Below, piece by piece: positions 12,207 to 53,412 of a stretch of DNA of 53,637 bases. The position numbers and the translations under genes are program-made. A model generated the notes under the pieces. The model saw nothing but the letters and a program-made list of their open reading frames with translations. It made no database searches and had not been told where the DNA came from. The first letter of the stretch is position 1, and each line of letters opens with the position of its first letter. The DNA is from Clostridia bacterium (GTDB lineage: Bacteria; Bacillota; Clostridia; DUPQ01): the NCBI GenBank assembly GCA_016929655.1, contig JAFGIJ010000094.1, forward strand, positions 1 through 53,637, written 5' to 3'.

Positions 12207-12265
12207 ACCGTTTACACCTCTTGTTATTTATTCCTGAAATTCAATATTAAGCTTGGTCAATTAAA

Positions 12266-12290
12266 TCAAAGGCCCGTTTTACGTGCCTTT
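12266..12290 (-). promoter_or_regulatory. Intercistronic hairpin between gap and pgk/tpiA (partial terminator or processing/stability element)
   Basis: Minus strand: CAAAGGC ...11-nt loop... GCCTTTG, followed by ATTTAATTG. Confidence 0.4.
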
Positions 12291-12296
12291 GTTCAA

Positions 12297-13337
<1,041 letters not shown>

Positions 13338-39129: not shown

Positions 39130-40188
39130 CTATTGAAATCTTATTTCTTTTCCTGTCAATGCACTTTCATATATAGCATCCAGTATCTTCATCAGCTCAA
39201 CCCCATCTTCGACGGGGCTTATGCATTCCTCTGTTTTGCAAACGCAGTCAATGAAATGTCGGACCTCACGACCGAACATTTCCTCAAATTCATTGGCCTC
39301 TTTGGTAAATACCGGGGTCATATCAATATTGTAACCTTCTTCAGACCCGGAGATTTTTATATCAGGAGCAACTTCCATACCTGCCTTGTCTCCGAAAATT
39401 TCACAGTAAATTTTTTCACTGGAAGTATGAAGTGTAAAACTCACCTCAACAGTCATAGCATTTCCATTCTTGAATTTTATCAATGCAGAAGCAGAATCCT
39501 CAACATCACATATTATTCCGGAATCAGCCGCCCTGTATCTGCTTAGCATTTTAACATCGTTTCTTGGGCCTATTTTATTGAAGGTTACACCGTAGACTCC
39601 GGCAGTTTCGGGTTTTCCCATCAGATATCTGCACAAATCAATCATATGCACACCAAGGTCAATCAATGGGCCCCCACCTGATTTGCTCTTGTCTGAAAAC
39701 CATCCCGAAGGATTTCCGCAACGCCTTATGCAACCGGTTTTTGCATAATAGACTTCTCCGAGTTTTCCTGCATCAATGAAATCCTTTGCTATTTTTGTTC
39801 CCTGTGCAAATCTTCTTACAAAACCAACCATCAGAAGTCTGCCTGACTTTTTTGCGGCATCCTGCATTTCAATTGCTTCAATACTGTTCATGGCAAGGGG
39901 TTTTTCACAAAGAACGTCAGCTCCTGCATTAAGAGCGTCAATGGTAATTCCGGCATGACTGTTGTTCCATGTACAGACACTTACAGCATCCGGTCTTACT
40001 TCTTCAAGCATTTTTACATGATTCTCATATACCCCTGGTATACCATTTGCTTTACAGAATTTGTCTAATCGTTCATGGTTGATGTCACAGGCAGCCACGA
40101 CTTCAACATTTTCCAGTTTTTTATATGATTTGAGGTGATAATTGCTTATATTTCCCGTTCCAACTATTGCGACTCTGATTTTTTTCAT
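39130..40188 (-). CDS. Gfo/Idh/MocA family NAD(P)-dependent oxidoreductase
   Basis: 352 aa. The IRVAIVGTGNIS Rossmann N-terminus and the EKPLA motif. Confidence 0.8.
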   Translation of the reverse strand: MKKIRVAIVGTGNISNYHLKSYKKLENVEVVAACDINHERLDKFCKANGIPGVYENHVKMLEEVRPDAVSVCTWNNSHAGITIDALNAGADVLCEKPLAMNSIEAIEMQDAAKKSGRLLMVGFVRRFAQGTKIAKDFIDAGKLGEVYYAKTGCIRRCGNPSGWFSDKSKSGGGPLIDLGVHMIDLCRYLMGKPETAGVYGVTFNKIGPRNDVKMLSRYRAADSGIICDVEDSASALIKFKNGNAMTVEVSFTLHTSSEKIYCEIFGDKAGMEVAPDIKISGSEEGYNIDMTPVFTKEANEFEEMFGREVRHFIDCVCKTEECISPVEDGVELMKILDAIYESALTGKEIRFQ

Positions 40189-40228
40189 AAATACTCCCGA
40201 TATCCCAACACATTTCCCGGATATTATA

Positions 40229-41359
40229 TCATTTTTTACCCTGAATGTAATTCAGGATTTCTGTAAAATCCACTATGCTTCCATCAATCCGGGATATATC
40301 AGCAGCCAGTGCGGTGGCACTGGCAAGTATTCCTGCCTCAAGTTGATTGGGGAAATATTCATTTTCATAACATTTTCTGAAAAATTCACATAAGCCTATA
40401 TCTCCGCCGCCATGACTTCCGCCGGTATCTTTGGGTTTATAAATACCATTGGGTTTACCCTTACATTCGAGTAAAACTTCCTGGGTTTCAAACTCACCTT
40501 TAATCAATCCTTTTTCACCATGAATTCTGATTGTTCTGTTTCCTTTTGATGAATGCATTGTCAATGTAAAAACTGCTGTAATGTTGTTCTCAAACAATAT
40601 ATTCACAGACTGGTGGTCGACAATATCAGATTCTATGTTGAATGGACAGATTCGCGCATCTACTGATGAAAAGACATACGCACTTTCATCAACATATATG
40701 CATTTGCCGAACTCCGGGCAGTCTTTGCTGCATATAGGCAATCCTCTTTTCCTTTTAAAGAGCATGTTGTTTCCAAAGGATGAGATTCTTTTAGGAAAAG
40801 CTCCGGCAACAATATTTATGATATCCATATCATGGCTGCACTTGGTATTAAGCATACCTCCGCTTAAACGACTTTCCCTATGCCACCTTCTGAAAAATTT
40901 GGCAGCATGCAACTCACCAAGAGTTTCCGATGCTTCTATGGAGACCAACGGACCGATTACCCCTTCTTCAATCAGTTCAATTATCTTCCTGTACATGAAG
41001 GTATAACGAAGGCCAAATCCAAGTACTATTCCATATTTATAATCTGACGCAATTTCATACAACTTTTTCAGAGCATCAAGACTGACTTCAACCGGCTTTT
41101 CAAGGAGTATGGGCTTTTTCTTTGTGACAGCCCATTCCATGACCTCCAGATGTGTATGATCGGGTGAAGCAACTATTATTGCATCAAAATAATCAGTGTT
41201 TTTGTAATCATTTACCATTACTGCATTTATCAAATTATATCTTTCAATCAACAACGGAGGTTTTTTTATATCGGGATCATAGACATAGGTGATATCCTCA
41301 TTGAAATAACCTGCGTATGCAGTTGCTCTGTTACCACTGCCAATCAATAGAATCCTCAT
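40229..41359 (-). CDS. Gfo/Idh/MocA family oxidoreductase paralog with a Cys-rich insert
   Basis: MRILLIGSGNRA Rossmann start and EKPVE motif. The ATG at 41359 lies 1 nt after the aroK stop. An alternative ATG at 41371 lies inside aroK. Confidence 0.7.
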   Translation of the reverse strand: MRILLIGSGNRATAYAGYFNEDITYVYDPDIKKPPLLIERYNLINAVMVNDYKNTDYFDAIIVASPDHTHLEVMEWAVTKKKPILLEKPVEVSLDALKKLYEIASDYKYGIVLGFGLRYTFMYRKIIELIEEGVIGPLVSIEASETLGELHAAKFFRRWHRESRLSGGMLNTKCSHDMDIINIVAGAFPKRISSFGNNMLFKRKRGLPICSKDCPEFGKCIYVDESAYVFSSVDARICPFNIESDIVDHQSVNILFENNITAVFTLTMHSSKGNRTIRIHGEKGLIKGEFETQEVLLECKGKPNGIYKPKDTGGSHGGGDIGLCEFFRKCYENEYFPNQLEAGILASATALAADISRIDGSIVDFTEILNYIQGKK

Positions 41360-41360
41360 A

Positions 41361-41864
41361 TCATACACCATACTTAATTTTGTTTATTACATCAATGACA
41401 GAATCAATGCATTCACTGACACTGCCATTGTTGAAAACAGTAAAATCCATGGACTCTCTATATATCCCATATCGTTCTTTATATAATTTTTCCAGCATAC
41501 CGGGCTTGTTCCTTACCATTGGTCTGTTTGATTCATCAATGGAAGCCTTGATCTTATCAATATCCCTGTCAATGAAAATTACAGTTCCTTTTTTGGCTGC
41601 TTCCCTGTTTGGTTTTATTCCAAGAATTCCACCACCGGTTGAAATTACTATATCTTCCATTTCCAATGCAGTCATAAACTCCCGGCTTTCATATTCTCTG
41701 AATCTCCCTTCACCTGCTTCATTAAAAATATCTGAAATTTTTCCATACTTTTCTTCAATCACTGCATCCAGGTCGATGAATTTAAGATTGGTTTTTTCAG
41801 CAACTGACTTTCCAATGGTGGTTTTACCCGAACCGGACATACCTACAAGAATGAATTTACTCAT
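41361..41864 (-). CDS. aroK: Shikimate kinase
   Basis: P-loop GMSGSGKTTIGK 8 aa from the ATG at 41864. GGG region. The start overlaps the aroE stop by 8 nt. Confidence 0.85.
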   Translation of the reverse strand: MSKFILVGMSGSGKTTIGKSVAEKTNLKFIDLDAVIEEKYGKISDIFNEAGEGRFREYESREFMTALEMEDIVISTGGGILGIKPNREAAKKGTVIFIDRDIDKIKASIDESNRPMVRNKPGMLEKLYKERYGIYRESMDFTVFNNGSVSECIDSVIDVINKIKYGV

Positions 41865-47099: not shown

Positions 47100-48113
47100 T
47101 TAAATCCTCCTGCCTATTGCTCCTGATATTATTCTCAGGCTGTTCATAAGTTCACTGAATTCATCCGGCGTTATTGATTGATTGCCATCACTCAATGCAT
47201 GTTCGGGGTCATTGTGAACCTCTATCATTATACCATCTGTTCCTGCTGCTACAGCAGCCCTTGCCATTGGCATAACCATCCAACCCATACCAGTTGCATG
47301 GCTTGGATCTACAATTATGGGAAGATGTGAAACTCTCTTTATTGCCGGCACTGCACTTACATCCAGGGTGTTCCTGGTGAATTTTTCAAAGGTTCTGATA
47401 CCCCTTTCACAAAGAATCACCTGAGTATTACCCTCAGACATAATGTACTCTGCTGACATAAGCCATTCTTCTATAGTCGCCGACAGACCTCTTTTTAAAA
47501 GAATTGGTTTATTTGTTTTTCCAAGTTCCTTGAGCAACATGAAATTCTGCATGTTCCTTGCACCAACCTGAATGAGGTCAATATCCCTGGCAAACCTCTC
47601 AACCATATTTTCTGATAATATTTCCGAAACAATCGGCAGACCTGTTGCTTTTTTAGCCAAAACCAGAAGTTCTATCCCTTCATAACCTAGTCCCTGAAAG
47701 CTATAGGGAGATGTTCTGGGTTTGAAAGCACCGCCTCTTAAAAAATCTGCACCAGCAGCCTTGACTTTTTGAGCAACCTCAACAATCTGGTCTTCGGTTT
47801 CAACTGAACACGGACCCGCAATAACCGCAATTTTACCTCCGCCTATCTCTTTCCCATCAACTTTCACTATGGTACTTTTTGGGTGAAAAAGTCTGTTGGC
47901 CCGTTTGAAAGGTTCCTGTATTCTCATGGCTTTGTGAACTATTTCATTGATCATAAGTGAATCAATGTCCATGGTACTGGTATCACCGACCAATCCCAGG
48001 ATTGTGTAATCACTGCCAACTACTTTCTCAACCGTAAGACCCTTCTTTTCAATCTCATAGATGAGTTGTTCTATTCTTTGTGCAGAAGCATGAGGCTTCA
48101 ATACTATAACCAT
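47100..48113 (-). CDS. aroF: 3-deoxy-7-phosphoheptulonate (DAHP) synthase, type I-beta, with an N-terminal ferredoxin-like regulatory domain
   Basis: 337 aa. The N-terminal roughly 70 aa (MVIVLKPHAS...ILGLVGD) resemble the Thermotoga-type regulatory domain. The catalytic core has GPCSVE, KPRTSPYSFQG, DPSH. Confidence 0.9.
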   Translation of the reverse strand: MVIVLKPHASAQRIEQLIYEIEKKGLTVEKVVGSDYTILGLVGDTSTMDIDSLMINEIVHKAMRIQEPFKRANRLFHPKSTIVKVDGKEIGGGKIAVIAGPCSVETEDQIVEVAQKVKAAGADFLRGGAFKPRTSPYSFQGLGYEGIELLVLAKKATGLPIVSEILSENMVERFARDIDLIQVGARNMQNFMLLKELGKTNKPILLKRGLSATIEEWLMSAEYIMSEGNTQVILCERGIRTFEKFTRNTLDVSAVPAIKRVSHLPIIVDPSHATGMGWMVMPMARAAVAAGTDGIMIEVHNDPEHALSDGNQSITPDEFSELMNSLRIISGAIGRRI

Positions 48114-48138
48114 AATTTCCTCCTATAAGGATAAATTT

Positions 48139-48166
48139 AAAAACAGAGACTCTGTGAGCCTCTGTT
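48139..48166 (-). terminator. Attenuator terminator in the aro operon leader
   Basis: Minus strand: AACAGAGGCTC ACA GAGTCTCTGTT (11 bp including one G-U), followed by TTT AAATTT. About 15 nt before the aroF AGGAGG. Confidence 0.7.
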
Positions 48167-48195
48167 ATCTTAATGTGTACAAAACAGCATCGGGC

Positions 48196-48261
48196 TCACT
48201 TTACCAAGTCCGTAAAAAAGAATGAATAAAACTGTTTTGTGTTTCTTATGTTCATTTTCAT
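48196..48261 (-). CDS. Candidate aro operon leader peptide MKMNIRNTKQFYSFFFTDLVK
   Basis: 21 codons plus TGA. FYSFFF run (TTT TAT TCA TTC TTT TTT). AAGG lies 7 nt before the second ATG (48255). The stop codon is embedded in the antiterminator arm. Confidence 0.5.
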   Translation of the reverse strand: MKMNIRNTKQFYSFFFTDLVK

Positions 48262-48272
48262 ACCTTGCATTG

Positions 48273-48302
48273 ATATTACATCAGATTTTGTTGCATTGTC
48301 AA
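48273..48302 (-). promoter_or_regulatory. Sigma-A type promoter of the aro operon
   Basis: Minus strand: TTGACA (48302..48297), 18-nt spacer, TAATAT (48278..48273). Confidence 0.6.
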
Positions 48303-48313
48303 GTGTGCTTGAA

Positions 48314-49864
48314 TCAATATCCATACTGTTTAAAATCTGCATTTTCTATGAAGTTTAAAACATCAGAATCCAGCTTGAAGCCACGGCTTTCAAGAATTAT
48401 AAATAAATCAGCAATCAGTCTGTAATATGCAGAATCTTTATATTCATTCAGGAATCTTAAATAACTGGCCTTGGCCTGTGCAAAAAGCTCCAGGCTTACA
48501 CTGTCATAAAGCGGAGATACTGCAAATCCAACTTTGCCTATGTATATACCCATGTACTCTTCGGCCTTCAATCTTGCTTTAATATTGTAAGGATAGCTGT
48601 TAGGATATGTGTCAGAGAATTTTTTCCATTCATACACCAATTGGGCAACCTGGTCAATTTCGATATAAAGGTTTTCATCATCAGCTGCTGTAATATGGTC
48701 GGAATCAAGGATCATAGATAGTTCAGTATCTCTCAAGATCAGGTACTCATTAAGAATATCTGATAAAAACAACTCAAAATTAGCTCTGAGATAACTTGGA
48801 ATGAGAGTTGCCTCAATGAAGCCATTGCTGATATCTACATTTATCCCTGCAGCCCTGGCCTTTACTATAAACTCTTCATTGATATTGCCCATATCATAAT
48901 TGAAAGGAATACCTGCGATAATTACATCATAAAATTCTTCCAGGACATTAAACATCCTGTCATTTACATAAAAATCAGAACCGGCTGTCTGCCTGAAATA
49001 ATCAGCTGCAATTGTCATACTTTCAATTTTTGAAGGATCGAGACCATTGAGCAAATCACAGAAAATTTTGTGCCGCTCTCCCTCCTGGGTTTCAATGATA
49101 TATAAATCCAATCTTGCTCTTTGCCATTCCACCAATGCCTGAAGTTCTTTTTCGTCTGAAGTTCCATTTGCTCCGTTTTCTAAAATTTCATTCAACCTCT
49201 CCTCAAGCTCCTTATATTCTCTTTTACTTGTTTCTAGCTGCATTTCAAGATCCTCAATCATGGAACTTGAATCCTGTACAGGTTCATAGGAAATTTTTCC
49301 CTCTCTGTCAAAGTATTCATAAACAGCATCCTGATTCCTGACATCCAACCCATCTGAATTGAATTTAATCTGAAACCGGTCGTCTGCTATATCTCCCAGA
49401 ATAATAGTTTCTCCCTCAGCCGGCATTGCTTTACTGCCTGTAAATGTACCTGAATAAATTTTTTCTCCATCAACAACAACAACAAATGCCATATACTGTG
49501 CTGACTCAAGAAATCTGCTTCCTCCCTTTTGATAGCTCCTAAAGCCATTGGAATCAATGATATAATCACTGTATTCAGTTGATCCATTGCTAAATAGTTT
49601 TTCCAGGAAGGAACCATTCACTTCTATTACATGGCTGTCCCAGTAGTATTTCCTTATGTCTTCTCCAGTCAATGAAGGAGTTTCTGCAATTGCAAGTCTT
49701 TCATAATCATAATACCCAAATTGTCTGACACTTTCGGTGGTAGCCAGATATATTTCAAAGCTTCCTTTGTTTGCATTGATTTCTGTTGGTCCATTCTCTA
49801 TATTGCAGCCCACAATTCCAATGACCATAGCCAGCAAAATCAGAATTACAGGAATTTTTTTCAT
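48314..49864 (-). CDS. Uncharacterised lipoprotein
   Basis: Signal peptide plus lipobox MKKIPVILILLAMVIGIVG-C. No domain recognised. Central charged coiled-coil-like stretch. The ORF-track start at 49870 is a TTG. The ATG at 49864 has AGGAGA 6 nt upstream. Confidence 0.7.
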   Translation of the reverse strand: MKKIPVILILLAMVIGIVGCNIENGPTEINANKGSFEIYLATTESVRQFGYYDYERLAIAETPSLTGEDIRKYYWDSHVIEVNGSFLEKLFSNGSTEYSDYIIDSNGFRSYQKGGSRFLESAQYMAFVVVVDGEKIYSGTFTGSKAMPAEGETIILGDIADDRFQIKFNSDGLDVRNQDAVYEYFDREGKISYEPVQDSSSMIEDLEMQLETSKREYKELEERLNEILENGANGTSDEKELQALVEWQRARLDLYIIETQEGERHKIFCDLLNGLDPSKIESMTIAADYFRQTAGSDFYVNDRMFNVLEEFYDVIIAGIPFNYDMGNINEEFIVKARAAGINVDISNGFIEATLIPSYLRANFELFLSDILNEYLILRDTELSMILDSDHITAADDENLYIEIDQVAQLVYEWKKFSDTYPNSYPYNIKARLKAEEYMGIYIGKVGFAVSPLYDSVSLELFAQAKASYLRFLNEYKDSAYYRLIADLFIILESRGFKLDSDVLNFIENADFKQYGY

Positions 49865-49890
49865 AATCAATCTCCTGTTTAGTTTTTTCC

Positions 49891-50011: not shown

Positions 50012-53000
50012 TCAGACTTTTTTTAATCCAAAGGTTGCGGTTTCACCATTTATATCCCATTCCTTCTGATATTCTGAATCCTTCAGATTTCCAAACATTC
50101 CATCTGCCAGTATTTCACTGCAGATATTATCTTTGTTTTTCCCGACAACCTCGAGGATTGTTTTACTGCCGTCGGCAAATAAGAGTATGTGATCCTGTAC
50201 TTCAAAGCCGGCTTCTTTTCTCATTGTCTGTATTTTACTTACCATCTCTCTTACAAAACCTTCTTCAATGAGTTCATCAGTCATATTTGTGTCAAGAACT
50301 GCTGTTATACTTCCGGATGTTTCAGACAAAAAGCCTCTTTTCTGTGTTGTTTCTGATAAAACATCATCTTTTTCCAAGATTACATCCGTTCCATCAATAC
50401 TAAAAGAGACTGTATTTCCCTTATCAAATTCAGACATTACATAAGATCCGTCAGCATCAGCAAGAGCTTTGTAGATTTTAGGAATTAGTTTGCCATATTT
50501 TGGTCCCAGTGTCTTAAGCTGTGGCTTCAAATTATAATCTATGAAAGTTGAAGCATCTTCTATGTAGCTGACCTTCTTGACATTAAGCTCATCCCTGATA
50601 AGTTCCAGATAATCTGCTGGCAATTCTGTTTCGCTCTTTAGAAGAAGCTCTGCCACCGGCTGTCTGTTCTTGATGTTTGCTGTATTTCTCAGGCTTCTTC
50701 CCATTACTACAGCACACAGTACTTCTTCCATAAACTTTTCGAGATTCTCATCTATAGCCGAATTGTCACATTCAGGAAAATCGCACAGATGTACGCTTTC
50801 AGGAGCCTGACTGTCTATTCCTGCAACCAGATTCCTGTAAATCTCTTCAGACATAAATGGGACAAATGGAGCAGATATCTTGGCAAGGGTGACAAGCACT
50901 GTGTAAAGTGTCATGTATGCATTGATCTTATCCTGGTTATTTTCTTTCTGCCAGAAGCGTTCCCTACCTCTTCTTACATACCAATTACTGAGCTCATCCA
51001 CAAATTTCTGCATTGCCCTTGCTGGTTCTGTAATCCTGTATACGGCAAGGCTCTCGTCTGTATATTTTACAAGAGAATTTAATTTTGACAGTATCCATCT
51101 ATCCATCAAACCCAGCTTGGCATATTCCAGTTTGTAATCCAGTGGATTGAATTTATCAATGTCAGCATATAAAACATAAAAAGCATAAGTGTTCCAGAAT
51201 GTTCCCATGAATTTCCTCTGGCCTTCACTGACAGCTTCTTCGTAGAATTTACTGGGCAGCCAAGGTGCACTGGCTGTGTAAAAATACCATCTGACAGCAT
51301 CAGCTCCTTGATTATCAAGTACAACATCCGGATCTACATAGTCGCCCTTGCTTTTACTCATTTTTTGCCCATCTTTGTTTTGAACCAGACCCAGTACAAC
51401 GCAGTTCTTATAAGCAGGTTCATCAAACAGAAGGGTTGATATTGCAAGAAGTGTATAAAACCATCCCCTTGTCTGGTCAAGTGCCTCACTGATAAAATCT
51501 GCCGGAAAATTCTCTTCAAACAATTCCTTGTTTTCAAATGGATAGTGCCATTGTGCAAAAGGCATGGCTCCCGAATCGAACCAGCAGTCTATTACTTCAC
51601 TGACCCTGCTCATTTCTCCTCCGCATTCAGGGCAGGTCAAGTGTATCTGATCAATGTATGGCTTATGCAGTTCTATGTCATCAGGAACATTTATTCCTCT
51701 TTGCTTCAATTCAGCTATACTGCCGATTGCATCCCGGTGACCGCATGAGCATTCCCAAATAGGCAGTGGTGTACCCCAGTATCTTTCCCTTGAAATACCC
51801 CAGTCCACTACATTTTTCAGGAAATTACCAAATCTGGCCTCTCCTATTGCAGGAGGATACCAATTGATTTTATCATTGTTCGCAAGAAGGTTTTCCTTAA
51901 GTTTTGTCATCTCAATGAACCATGAATTTCTTGCATAATATATAAGGTGGGTATCACATCTCCAGCAGAAAGGATACGAGTGTTCATATTCATTTATCTT
52001 GAACAGCAAACCCTTTTTAGTCAGATATTCAATTATTACAGGATCAGCATCTTTGACAAACATTCCTGCAATAAAATCTGTTTCCTCTGTCATATGCCCC
52101 TGTTCGTCTACCAATTGGACGAATGGAAGGCCGTACTTTCTTCCTACTACTGCATCATCCTCTCCAAAGGCCGGTGCAGTATGAACGATCCCGGTACCTT
52201 CTGTAAGGGTTACAAAATCACCCAGGCAGACATAATAAGCCTTCTTGTCAGGTTTTACAAAATCAAACAGAGGCTCATACTCCATTCCCTCAAGCTGCGC
52301 ACCCTTGTAGGTTTCAACTATTTCAAAGCTATCTCCCAGAACACTGGTTGCAAGGGATTTAGCCAGTATTATATTTTCTCCATTATATAGCACCTTTACA
52401 TATTCATTGTCAGGGCCAACAGTCAGGGCAAGATTTGATGGAAGAGTCCATGGTGTGGTTGTCCATGCCATAAAATATGTATTTTCAACACCCTTCACCT
52501 TGAATTTTACATAAATAGATTCTTCATGGACATCCTTGTATCCCTGGGCTACCTCATGGCTGGATAGACTGGTTCCACATCTTGGACAATATGGCACAAT
52601 CTTGTGACCCTTGTAAAGGAGTCCTTTGTCCCATATAGTCTTAAGAGCCCACCACACAGATTCTATGTAGTCGTTCTCATAAGTTATATATGGATTGTCC
52701 ATATCAGCCCAGAAACCGACCTTTTCGCTCATTATTTCCCAGTTGCCCTTATATTTCCATACACTTTCCTTGCACTTCTTTATAAAAGGCTCGACACCAT
52801 ACTTTTCTATCTCGGGTTTTCCATCAATACCAAGCATCTTTTCTACTTCCAGCTCCACAGGCAGCCCATGTGTGTCCCAGCCGGCTTTTCTGAGGACTTT
52901 GTAACCCTTCATTGTTCTGTACCGTGGAATCAGATCCTTGATGACCCTGGTCAATATATGGCCAATATGTGGCAATCCATTGGCGGTGGGAGGCCCATCA

Positions 53001-53131
53001 TAAAAGGTAAACACAGGAGCACCTTCCCTGTTTTCGATGCTTTTCCTGAATATATCATTTTCCTTCCAGAACTGTCTGGTCTCTTTTTCCCTTTCGGCGA
53101 AATCAAGTTTGGTTGAAACTTTCTTGTACAT
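50012..53131 (-). CDS. ileS: Isoleucine--tRNA ligase, type 2 (about 1040 aa form)
   Basis: HIGH motif PTANGLPHIGH and KMSKS motif GQKMSKSKG. The ATG at 53131 (MYKKVST) has GGAGG 5 nt upstream. The ORF-track N-terminal extension to 53200 runs through the T-box terminator. Confidence 0.95.
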   Translation of the reverse strand: MYKKVSTKLDFAEREKETRQFWKENDIFRKSIENREGAPVFTFYDGPPTANGLPHIGHILTRVIKDLIPRYRTMKGYKVLRKAGWDTHGLPVELEVEKMLGIDGKPEIEKYGVEPFIKKCKESVWKYKGNWEIMSEKVGFWADMDNPYITYENDYIESVWWALKTIWDKGLLYKGHKIVPYCPRCGTSLSSHEVAQGYKDVHEESIYVKFKVKGVENTYFMAWTTTPWTLPSNLALTVGPDNEYVKVLYNGENIILAKSLATSVLGDSFEIVETYKGAQLEGMEYEPLFDFVKPDKKAYYVCLGDFVTLTEGTGIVHTAPAFGEDDAVVGRKYGLPFVQLVDEQGHMTEETDFIAGMFVKDADPVIIEYLTKKGLLFKINEYEHSYPFCWRCDTHLIYYARNSWFIEMTKLKENLLANNDKINWYPPAIGEARFGNFLKNVVDWGISRERYWGTPLPIWECSCGHRDAIGSIAELKQRGINVPDDIELHKPYIDQIHLTCPECGGEMSRVSEVIDCWFDSGAMPFAQWHYPFENKELFEENFPADFISEALDQTRGWFYTLLAISTLLFDEPAYKNCVVLGLVQNKDGQKMSKSKGDYVDPDVVLDNQGADAVRWYFYTASAPWLPSKFYEEAVSEGQRKFMGTFWNTYAFYVLYADIDKFNPLDYKLEYAKLGLMDRWILSKLNSLVKYTDESLAVYRITEPARAMQKFVDELSNWYVRRGRERFWQKENNQDKINAYMTLYTVLVTLAKISAPFVPFMSEEIYRNLVAGIDSQAPESVHLCDFPECDNSAIDENLEKFMEEVLCAVVMGRSLRNTANIKNRQPVAELLLKSETELPADYLELIRDELNVKKVSYIEDASTFIDYNLKPQLKTLGPKYGKLIPKIYKALADADGSYVMSEFDKGNTVSFSIDGTDVILEKDDVLSETTQKRGFLSETSGSITAVLDTNMTDELIEEGFVREMVSKIQTMRKEAGFEVQDHILLFADGSKTILEVVGKNKDNICSEILADGMFGNLKDSEYQKEWDINGETATFGLKKV

Positions 53132-53139
53132 TTCTTCCT

Positions 53140-53412
53140 CCATATATTTACATAAATAAAGCTCTATCATCCTCACAGGGACGAAAGAGCATTCTCTCAC
53201 GCGGTACCACCCGGTTTGCTTGGCAAGCCACTTTTCAGATACATTACATATCCTGCATTTATAACGGTTGCTGCCGTTTCCCCTTACTGCCTTTCTGGGG
53301 AAAAGCTCCCGGATGATATTCAGAAAACCAAGTGTACAGTCTTACACCAGCCGACTGCTCTCTCTGCCACCTGCGAATCCTTACTTGTTCCGCTCAAAGC
53401 CTTTGCTTAATT
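53140..53412 (-). promoter_or_regulatory. T-box riboswitch leader, Ile specifier (AUC)
   Basis: Minus strand: AGAGAG (AG bay), CTGGTG (distal loop region), specifier loop GAATATCA (ATC at 53317..53315 followed by A), F-box-like CCGTTA, and T-box AAACCGGGTGGTACCGCG (53217..53200), followed by a terminator. Confidence 0.9.
53151..53190 (-). terminator. T-box terminator helix
   Basis: Minus strand: GCTCTTTCGTCC CTGTGA GGATGATAGAGC (12 positions, one mismatch, one G-U), followed by TTTATTTAT. Its 5' arm overlaps the antiterminator 3' arm. Confidence 0.75.

Follow-up and report, generated by a model that had tools for sequence, protein, structure and literature searches.

A conserved leader upstream of the aroF operon in a Clostridia bacterium, predicted to be a Phe/Tyr-sensing transcription attenuator

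Results

Promoter, leader ORF and aroF

The window is a stretch of DNA of 53,637 nucleotides from a Clostridia bacterium (assembly GCA_016929655.1, contig JAFGIJ010000094.1). Its minus strand carries a short leader directly upstream of aroF, which encodes a DAHP synthase, and this leader is the subject of the present analysis. An earlier note on this DNA had described it as a Phe/Tyr-rich leader peptide inside a terminator/antiterminator. Direct reading of the minus strand agreed with that note on the position of the promoter, the leader open reading frame (ORF), the four RNA segments, the terminator and the Shine-Dalgarno (SD) sequence of aroF. The predicted promoter is of the sigma-70 type (48273..48302, minus strand) and consists of TTGACA (48302..48297) and TAATAT (48278..48273) separated by 18 nt. 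Among close relatives TTGACA does not vary, and the -10 region is conserved. The aroF feature lies at 47100..48124 on the minus strand, with the SD sequence AGGAGG at 48124..48119 and the ATG at 48113. The aroF product contains FXD and DAHP_synth_1 domains, and FXD is the N-terminal regulatory domain that had been proposed for this enzyme. aroF is the first gene of an operon with the order aroF-aroB-aroA-aroC-pheA-aroE-aroK, which reaches 41361 on the minus strand. The domain make-up of pheA is CM-PDT-ACT.

The leader ORF (48196..48255, minus strand) encodes the 19 aa peptide MNIRNTKQFYSFFFTDLVK when read from its second ATG. The stop codon is TGA (48198..48196). The ORF is open in all 15 members of the window clade, which comprises 15 distinct leaders, that of the window and those of 14 relatives, associated with DAHP synthases 70-95% identical. 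These were collected by genome and metagenome scans and by nine look-ups of closer DAHP synthase homologues. The first ATG (48261), taken as the start in the earlier note, would give MKMNIRNTKQFYSFFFTDLVK, which is MNIRNTKQFYSFFFTDLVK preceded by MK. This start was rejected on conservation and SD spacing. Relatives have GTG, GCG, GTA or AGG at this position and it is only 1 nt from the SD sequence. The second ATG (48255) lies 7 nt after the SD sequence AAGG (48263..48266, minus strand). Because the first ATG is neither conserved nor suitably spaced, the second is probably the real start. CAAGGU is invariant in six aligned close relatives, the window included, and recurs in the covariance model alignment, with L170, L173 and L004 deviating. 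More distant relatives have purine-rich SD sequences upstream of the leader ORF.

The putative regulatory codons are UUU UAU UCA UUC UUU UUU (48214..48231, minus strand), encoding F Y S F F F, and five of the six are Phe or Tyr codons. The aromatic run takes the forms FYFFFF, FYFFFY, FYFYF, FYAFFF, YYFFFF and NYFFF in relatives. Within the window clade no other part of the peptide is conserved, and residues at both termini vary freely. An ORF on the opposite strand (48222..48425, plus strand) was considered and rejected. Of the 14 relatives, 11 have essentially no such ORF (0-4 aa), and it measures 23 aa in L172 and 61 aa in L082.

RNA segments and predicted folds

Segment 1a, ACAAAACAG (48232..48240, minus strand), is the 5' strand of the outer helix of a long hairpin, P1. 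It is perfectly complementary over 9 bp to CTGTTTTGT (48187..48179), and the 3' strand of this helix is segment 2b, CUGUUUUGU (48179..48187, minus strand). Segment 1b, CGGACUUG (48205..48212, minus strand), covers the Thr-Asp-Leu codons and is an inner P1 strand able to sequester segment 2a. Segment 2a, GUGAGCCCG (48191..48199, minus strand), contains the leader stop UGA and is the 5' strand of the antiterminator. GTGAGCC (48199..48193), stop codon included, is complementary to GGCTCAC (48160..48154). The latter belongs to segment 3, AACAGAGGCUCAC (48154..48166, minus strand), which forms the terminator 5' arm and loop, so that GGCUCAC can pair alternatively with 2a. Segment 4 is GAGUCUCUGUU (48152..48142) and, with a run of five U (48143..48139), occupies 48139..48152 on the minus strand. 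The first two U of this run are also the last two bases of the stem. The terminator has an 11 bp stem (48166..48142) with 5 GC pairs and an ACA loop, and a hairpin energy of -13.5 to -14.4 kcal/mol. No other terminator-like site lies between aroF and the upstream ORF, which ends at 48314. A sequence scan of the interval between the terminator and aroF found no promoter-like site. The regulatory codons FYSFFF sit in a large internal loop of P1. The last Phe codon starts 17 nt 5' of segment 2a, just beyond a ribosome footprint, and the leader stop lies inside 2a.

The earlier note had suggested folding the leader to compare its two conformers. Free leader RNA folded as the 1:2 hairpin plus the terminator, with an energy of -34.1 kcal/mol (z = -2.5). 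The window and six relatives were compared in this way. Full-length free RNA gave P1 plus the terminator, and nascent RNA cut before segment 4 gave the 2a:3 helix in 7/7. The 2a:3 helix formed in the cut transcripts with or without a 30 nt mask on the aromatic codons representing a stalled ribosome (7/7). Truncated transcripts were used as a stand-in for co-transcriptional folding because masked full-length equilibrium folds mostly still gave the terminator.

Conservation of the leader in the window clade

All 15 clade members have a purine-rich SD sequence with an ATG, an ORF of 12-19 codons with an aromatic run, a stop codon that overlaps or directly adjoins (G/U)UGAGC(C/U), and a terminator 5' arm ending in GGCUCA. 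The reading frame, SD sequence, start, aromatic run and position of the stop in 2a survive insertions and deletions across the clade. A covariance model, R1, was built on six of the sequences and recovered eight others with scores of 147.9 to 20.8 bits (E 3e-32 to 1e-2), and the clade leaders therefore form one family. When run against 160 loci carrying related DAHP synthases, R1 matched its own clade only and did not find the long-leader family described below. One further R1 match in the window (12259..12376, minus strand; 25.2 bits, E 0.011) covers the 3' end of gap (GAPDH) and its terminator, and was rejected as a chance, hairpin-driven match.

Pairing was counted in a model-guided alignment plus the window, giving 14 sequences. 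L004 was left out, its row being misaligned. The 11 bp terminator (3:4) with its U run, which the earlier note had described, is paired in 97% of cells and shows AU to GC changes, in either direction, at two positions. The outer P1 helix (1a:2b) is paired in 81% of cells and shows clear AU/GC compensation at three pairs, for example 35:82 (AU in five sequences, GC in four) and 32:85 (AU in three, GC in four). Of its 9 pairs, 7-9 are retained by the window and the eight relatives nearest to it, and 5-6 by L168, L169 and L173. The inner P1 helix (1b:2a) is paired in 85% of cells, with GGAC/GGGAC conserved and no covariation. The antiterminator GUGAGCC:GGCUCAC (2a:3) is paired in 93% of cells with wobble or one-sided changes only. 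It is present in all 15 clade members, with duplex energies of -8.7 to -14.7 kcal/mol. This part of the 2:3 helix drawn in the earlier note thus stands, but its extension, CUGUU:AACAG, is not maintained. Where 2b has changed it has covaried with segment 1, breaking the pairing with segment 3.

F/Y-rich ORFs upstream of related aroF genes

Relatives of the window DAHP synthase were taken from 160 loci, of which 151 have at least 250 nt of upstream sequence. A short ORF was scored as F/Y-rich if it had at least five Phe, Tyr or Trp in a seven-residue window within 350 nt upstream. Such an ORF was found upstream of aroF in 65 of the 151 loci, which were not de-replicated, compared to 4/151 for the reverse complement and 37/1510 (2.5%) for dinucleotide shuffles. 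In most cases a strong intrinsic terminator lay between this ORF and aroF. The signal is spread over many clades, including the window's own, Acetobacterium, Christensenellaceae, Oscillospiraceae, Acutalibacteraceae and Ruminococcaceae. The search in relatives proposed in the earlier note was productive as to the F/Y-rich ORF, the terminator and the covariation of P1 and the terminator. It yielded no double compensatory change in the antiterminator. A T-box sequence regular expression run on the upstream regions of all loci matched L062 and L158 only.

Two other groups of loci were seen in this survey. Many of L025-L050 and L087-L124 (Agathobaculum, Butyricicoccus and gut metagenome sequences, with DAHP synthases 57-61% identical) have neither an F/Y-rich upstream ORF nor a T-box motif upstream. 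A third leader design precedes the DAHP synthase gene in Oscillospiraceae-type loci (L054, L116, L128, L140, L148 and L159). In this design the Tyr/Phe codons (e.g. UACUAUUACUUU) form the 5' arm of a long P1 and pair with AGUAAURGU just past the stop. A strong terminator lies 45-70 nt further on.

Neighbouring genes

A 518 aa ORF (48314..49870, minus strand) with no Pfam match adjoins the leader promoter on its 5' side. Similar-sized ORFs without Pfam matches precede the leader in the closest relatives (L165, L166, L168 and L169) and other genes do so in more distant ones. The gene 5' of the leader varies among relatives (sortase, DUF402, UPF0236) and the linkage of leader and aroF is constant. 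The window operon contains pheA and no recognisable tyrA/prephenate dehydrogenase gene. At the Phascolarctobacterium locus (L163) a prephenate dehydrogenase gene directly follows aroF. aroK is followed on the same strand by two genes for GFO/IDH/MocA-family oxidoreductases (39130..41371, minus strand). Further upstream, ileS (50012..53170, minus strand) encodes a 1052 aa class I aminoacyl-tRNA synthetase with Anticodon_1 and a C-terminal DUF5915 domain. It is preceded by the T-box leader that the earlier note had recognised (53174..53406, minus strand), which matched the Rfam model RF00230 with 118.9 bits and has the Stem I specifier AUC (Ile).

Discussion

Proposed mechanism

The earlier suggestion of trpL/pheL-type attenuation of this operon agrees with what the sequence shows: the conserved elements, the two alternative folds, and covariation in both P1 and the terminator. 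The 15-member clade, the enrichment of upstream ORFs and the pairing counts all support it. We consider it likely that the leader is a ribosome-mediated transcription attenuator which senses charged tRNA-Phe and tRNA-Tyr and controls aroF-aroB-aroA-aroC-pheA-aroE-aroK.

We infer that the promoter is used and that the ORF is translated. Transcription would start approximately 10-15 nt 5' of the 19-codon ORF. With ample Phe and Tyr, the ribosome would reach the UGA within GUGAGCC and occlude segment 2a. GGCUCAC in segment 3 would then pair with segment 4, and RNA polymerase would terminate at the U run approximately 25 nt 5' of the aroF start codon. A shortage of Phe-tRNA or Tyr-tRNA would make the ribosome stall on FYSFFF and cover 1a and/or 1b. 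This would melt P1 (1a:2b and 1b:2a) and leave 2a free, because the last Phe codon is 17 nt 5' of 2a and so just outside the footprint. Free 2a could pair with segment 3 before segment 4 is made, and the polymerase would read through into the operon. If the leader is not translated, P1 and the terminator would both form and the default state would be off.

Several observations weigh against this mechanism. The full-length RNA at equilibrium prefers the terminator in 5/7 sequences despite the stalled-ribosome mask, so that kinetic, co-transcriptional control has to be assumed. There is almost no variation in the antiterminator helix, and no double compensatory change among the 14 aligned sequences. 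The U tract is short (5 U). The outer P1 helix is not kept in distant clade members. It is lost in L170-L172 (1-3 of 9 pairs), and in L004 the 1a:2b duplex is no better than in shuffled sequence and a different 1:2 pairing overlaps the stop codon. The 9 bp 1:2 helix of the earlier note covaries among the nearest relatives, but it is specific to part of the clade. It also shares no nucleotides with the 7 bp 2a:3 antiterminator, and the two could in principle coexist as a pseudoknot. As the two helices use different bases, the role of P1 as an anti-antiterminator rests on the weaker, non-covarying inner helix. In the folding model the competition between P1 and the antiterminator runs via nesting and the inner helix CGGAC(U):GAGCCCG.

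Alternative explanations

Control could instead come from a trans-acting factor. An RNA-binding protein, an uncharged tRNA or a small ligand would set the choice between 2a:3 and 3:4, and the ORF would be incidental to a U-rich leader. T-boxes, TRAP and PyrR-type proteins are common in Firmicutes and a T-box lies within the same window. Segments 2a and 3 are also unusually invariant, as expected of a protein or ligand site. The earlier note had itself named a degenerate T-box as a possible better explanation. No Rfam family, T-box included, matched the leader at E<=10, and the leader has no repeated protein-binding motif. In addition, the frame, SD sequence, start, aromatic run and stop within 2a are retained in all 15 members despite insertions and deletions, and the F/Y enrichment is specific to the frame and strand. 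A trans-acting factor is therefore very improbable. A nascent aromatic peptide that arrests the ribosome on free Phe/Tyr or another ligand, as TnaC does, would have the same antiterminator read-out. This is slightly less probable again. The F-Y-F core is conserved as a peptide across clades with very different nucleotide contexts, and the long-leader family retains the extended peptide motif FYFSAGYF. The window clade, on the other hand, keeps the aromatic run alone while the terminal residues vary. Derepression by excess Phe/Tyr would have the wrong sign for a biosynthetic operon, and charging-dependent stalling is classically recognised by runs of cognate codons.

The hairpin could also be a constitutive terminator of the upstream 518 aa gene, or an insulator, with aroF expressed by read-through or from another promoter and without conditional control. 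It is the sole terminator-like site between that ORF and aroF. Against this, the hairpin is separated from the upstream stop by a conserved promoter, and the interval between the terminator and aroF lacks a promoter-like site. The leader travels with aroF though the upstream genes differ, and a constitutive terminator would not account for the conserved alternative pairing or for the overlap with the stop codon. This is the least probable of the alternatives, and ribosome-mediated attenuation by charged tRNA-Phe and tRNA-Tyr remains the preferred explanation.

Significance

This leader adds a well-supported example (14 relatives, partial covariation) to the leader-peptide attenuators of Firmicutes, which are still purely computational. 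F/Y leader attenuators of aroF appear common and variable across Clostridia. In the Clostridia sampled, the first enzyme of the shikimate pathway would frequently be under two-level control, with a leader that senses Phe/Tyr as one level and an allosteric FXD domain as the other. A design this compact, in which the stop lies inside the antiterminator strand, could be handy for ribosome-sensed attenuation in anaerobes, as a minimal model or a synthetic-biology part. The earlier note had regarded such a leader as unusual for an AT-rich Gram-positive genome. This premise fails because F/Y leader attenuators upstream of Firmicutes aroF have previously been described bioinformatically (PMC6429828, PMC8632094). 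The leader in the window would not surprise a specialist and leaves the current understanding of attenuation unchanged.

Comparison with known attenuators

The replacement of T-boxes by 'regular' leader peptides in Firmicutes was noted by Naville and Gautheret (2010; PMC2965389). Rfam searches over the window leader, both at the gathering score and at E<=10, matched no amino-acid leader family and gave chance snoRNA/miRNA matches only (E>5). RF00230, which scores 118.9 bits on the ileS leader, had no match in 48050..48400 at E<=10. The leader of the window resembles the E. coli pheL-pheA and trpL leaders (RF01859, RF00513) and the Lactococcus leu/phe leader (RF01743) in its 1:2, 2:3 and 3:4 logic, its tandem cognate codons and its stop near segment 2. 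It differs in that its operon begins with DAHP synthase and covers the common pathway as well as pheA. Its regulatory codons also lie in the P1 internal loop and not in segment 1 itself.

The aroR leader (Phe-Tyr-Phe) precedes aroF in C. glutamicum, where ribosome stalling under Phe limitation raises transcription according to transcriptome data (Neshat et al., 2014, as reported in PMC11802643). From that account it shares with the window leader a Phe-Tyr-Phe peptide, the target gene (DAHP synthase) and the signal. The host belongs to the Actinobacteria, and aroR is unrelated to the window leader in sequence and structure. aroR has transcriptome support as described there, whereas the window element is known from sequence. 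aroR is also distinct from the Firmicutes motifs according to Stav et al. (PMC6429828). By analogy, aroR-aroF as reported and the predicted uORF-12 and uORF-13, which have the same logic and target gene, favour an attenuator in the window (PMC11802643, PMC6429828).

Stav et al. (2019; BMC Microbiol 19:66, PMC6429828, supplementary text and Table S1) predicted two 'aromatic amino acid attenuators', uORF-12 and uORF-13, found from Clostridium novyi. The 336 examples of uORF-13 come from Clostridiales, Thermoanaerobacterales, Bacillales, Negativicutes and metagenomes, and the motif was read as trp-like attenuation (PMC6429828). About half are upstream of aroF/DAHP synthase and other shikimate genes, and the design is a short ORF with F-Y-F in the P1 loop, followed by a terminator (PMC6429828). 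The window leader is similar in that it occurs in Clostridia (its relatives being metagenome-assembled genomes of Clostridia), lies upstream of aroF, and has a short ORF followed by a terminator stem. Relatives in the window clade have FYF and the window FYSFFF, located in a large internal loop and not in a small local hairpin. uORF-12 has 1258 examples, mostly upstream of amino-acid transporters, with an F/Y-rich peptide encoded just before P1 and a more complex structure (PMC6429828). Compared with this text description, the F/Y codons of the window directly precede an inner hairpin, CGGACUUG...GAGCCCG. uORFC-13-1 was predicted upstream of aroF in Acholeplasma (Brewer et al., 2021, RNA Biol, PMC8632094). 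It resembles the window leader in its promoter, ribosome-binding site, start codon, U-run coding for Phe, adjacent terminator and position upstream of aroF (PMC8632094). As described, it occurs in Acholeplasma and environmental sequences only (24 examples) and conserves at least one Phe codon and not an F/Y run.

A long-leader family was found upstream of the same type of DAHP synthase gene in Clostridium butyricum, C. chromiireducens, Phascolarctobacterium, Megasphaera, Anaerovorax, Acetobacterium and several metagenome-assembled genomes (L161 1155-1329, L164 1295-1463, L163 1291-1455, L069, L022, L005, L007 and others). It has an upstream ORF of 36-49 aa with a conserved (F/Y)YFSAGYF motif and an 8 bp covarying hairpin whose loop holds the F-Y-F codons. 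AAUGAGU, close to the end of the ORF, pairs with RCUCAUU at the terminator apex. By its fit to the description and its taxon range, this family is probably the published uORF-13. An nhmmer profile (A4) and a covariance model (R2) of the family were used as surrogates for uORF-13, the C. butyricum, C. chromiireducens and Phascolarctobacterium loci serving as proxies for the C. novyi prototype. The two models found members outside the training set (L137, L017, L094, L163, Acetobacterium, L015 and L133; E 1e-21 to 8e-5). Neither detected the window leader at E<=10. The nhmmer profile, run over all loci, found none of the 14 window-clade relatives. R2 was applied to the clade and to 23 additional loci, and its one match at the leader position of a relative was below threshold (L172; 14.5 bits, E 2.6).

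The window leader is half the length of those in the long-leader family. It has neither their local P1 hairpin nor SAGYF, and its stop codon falls within the antiterminator strand. The apex motif A(A/G)UGAG : CUCA(U/C)U occurs in both, apparently with an A-U to G-C swap between them, and may reflect either common descent or convergence. As judged from sequence comparison, the window clade is a distinct, shorter family of an already predicted kind, set apart from the long-leader, probably uORF-13, family by the surrogate models. It may belong to uORF-12, given the position of its F/Y codons. It is possible, although we hold it with slightly less than even confidence, that the short leader is a separate, undescribed family, either independent or diverged beyond recognition from a uORF-13-like leader. 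Together with the Oscillospiraceae-type design, this would mean that Phe/Tyr attenuators of aroF have been invented or remodelled repeatedly within Clostridia, and that attenuators and not T-boxes are the dominant control of this DAHP synthase in the sample.

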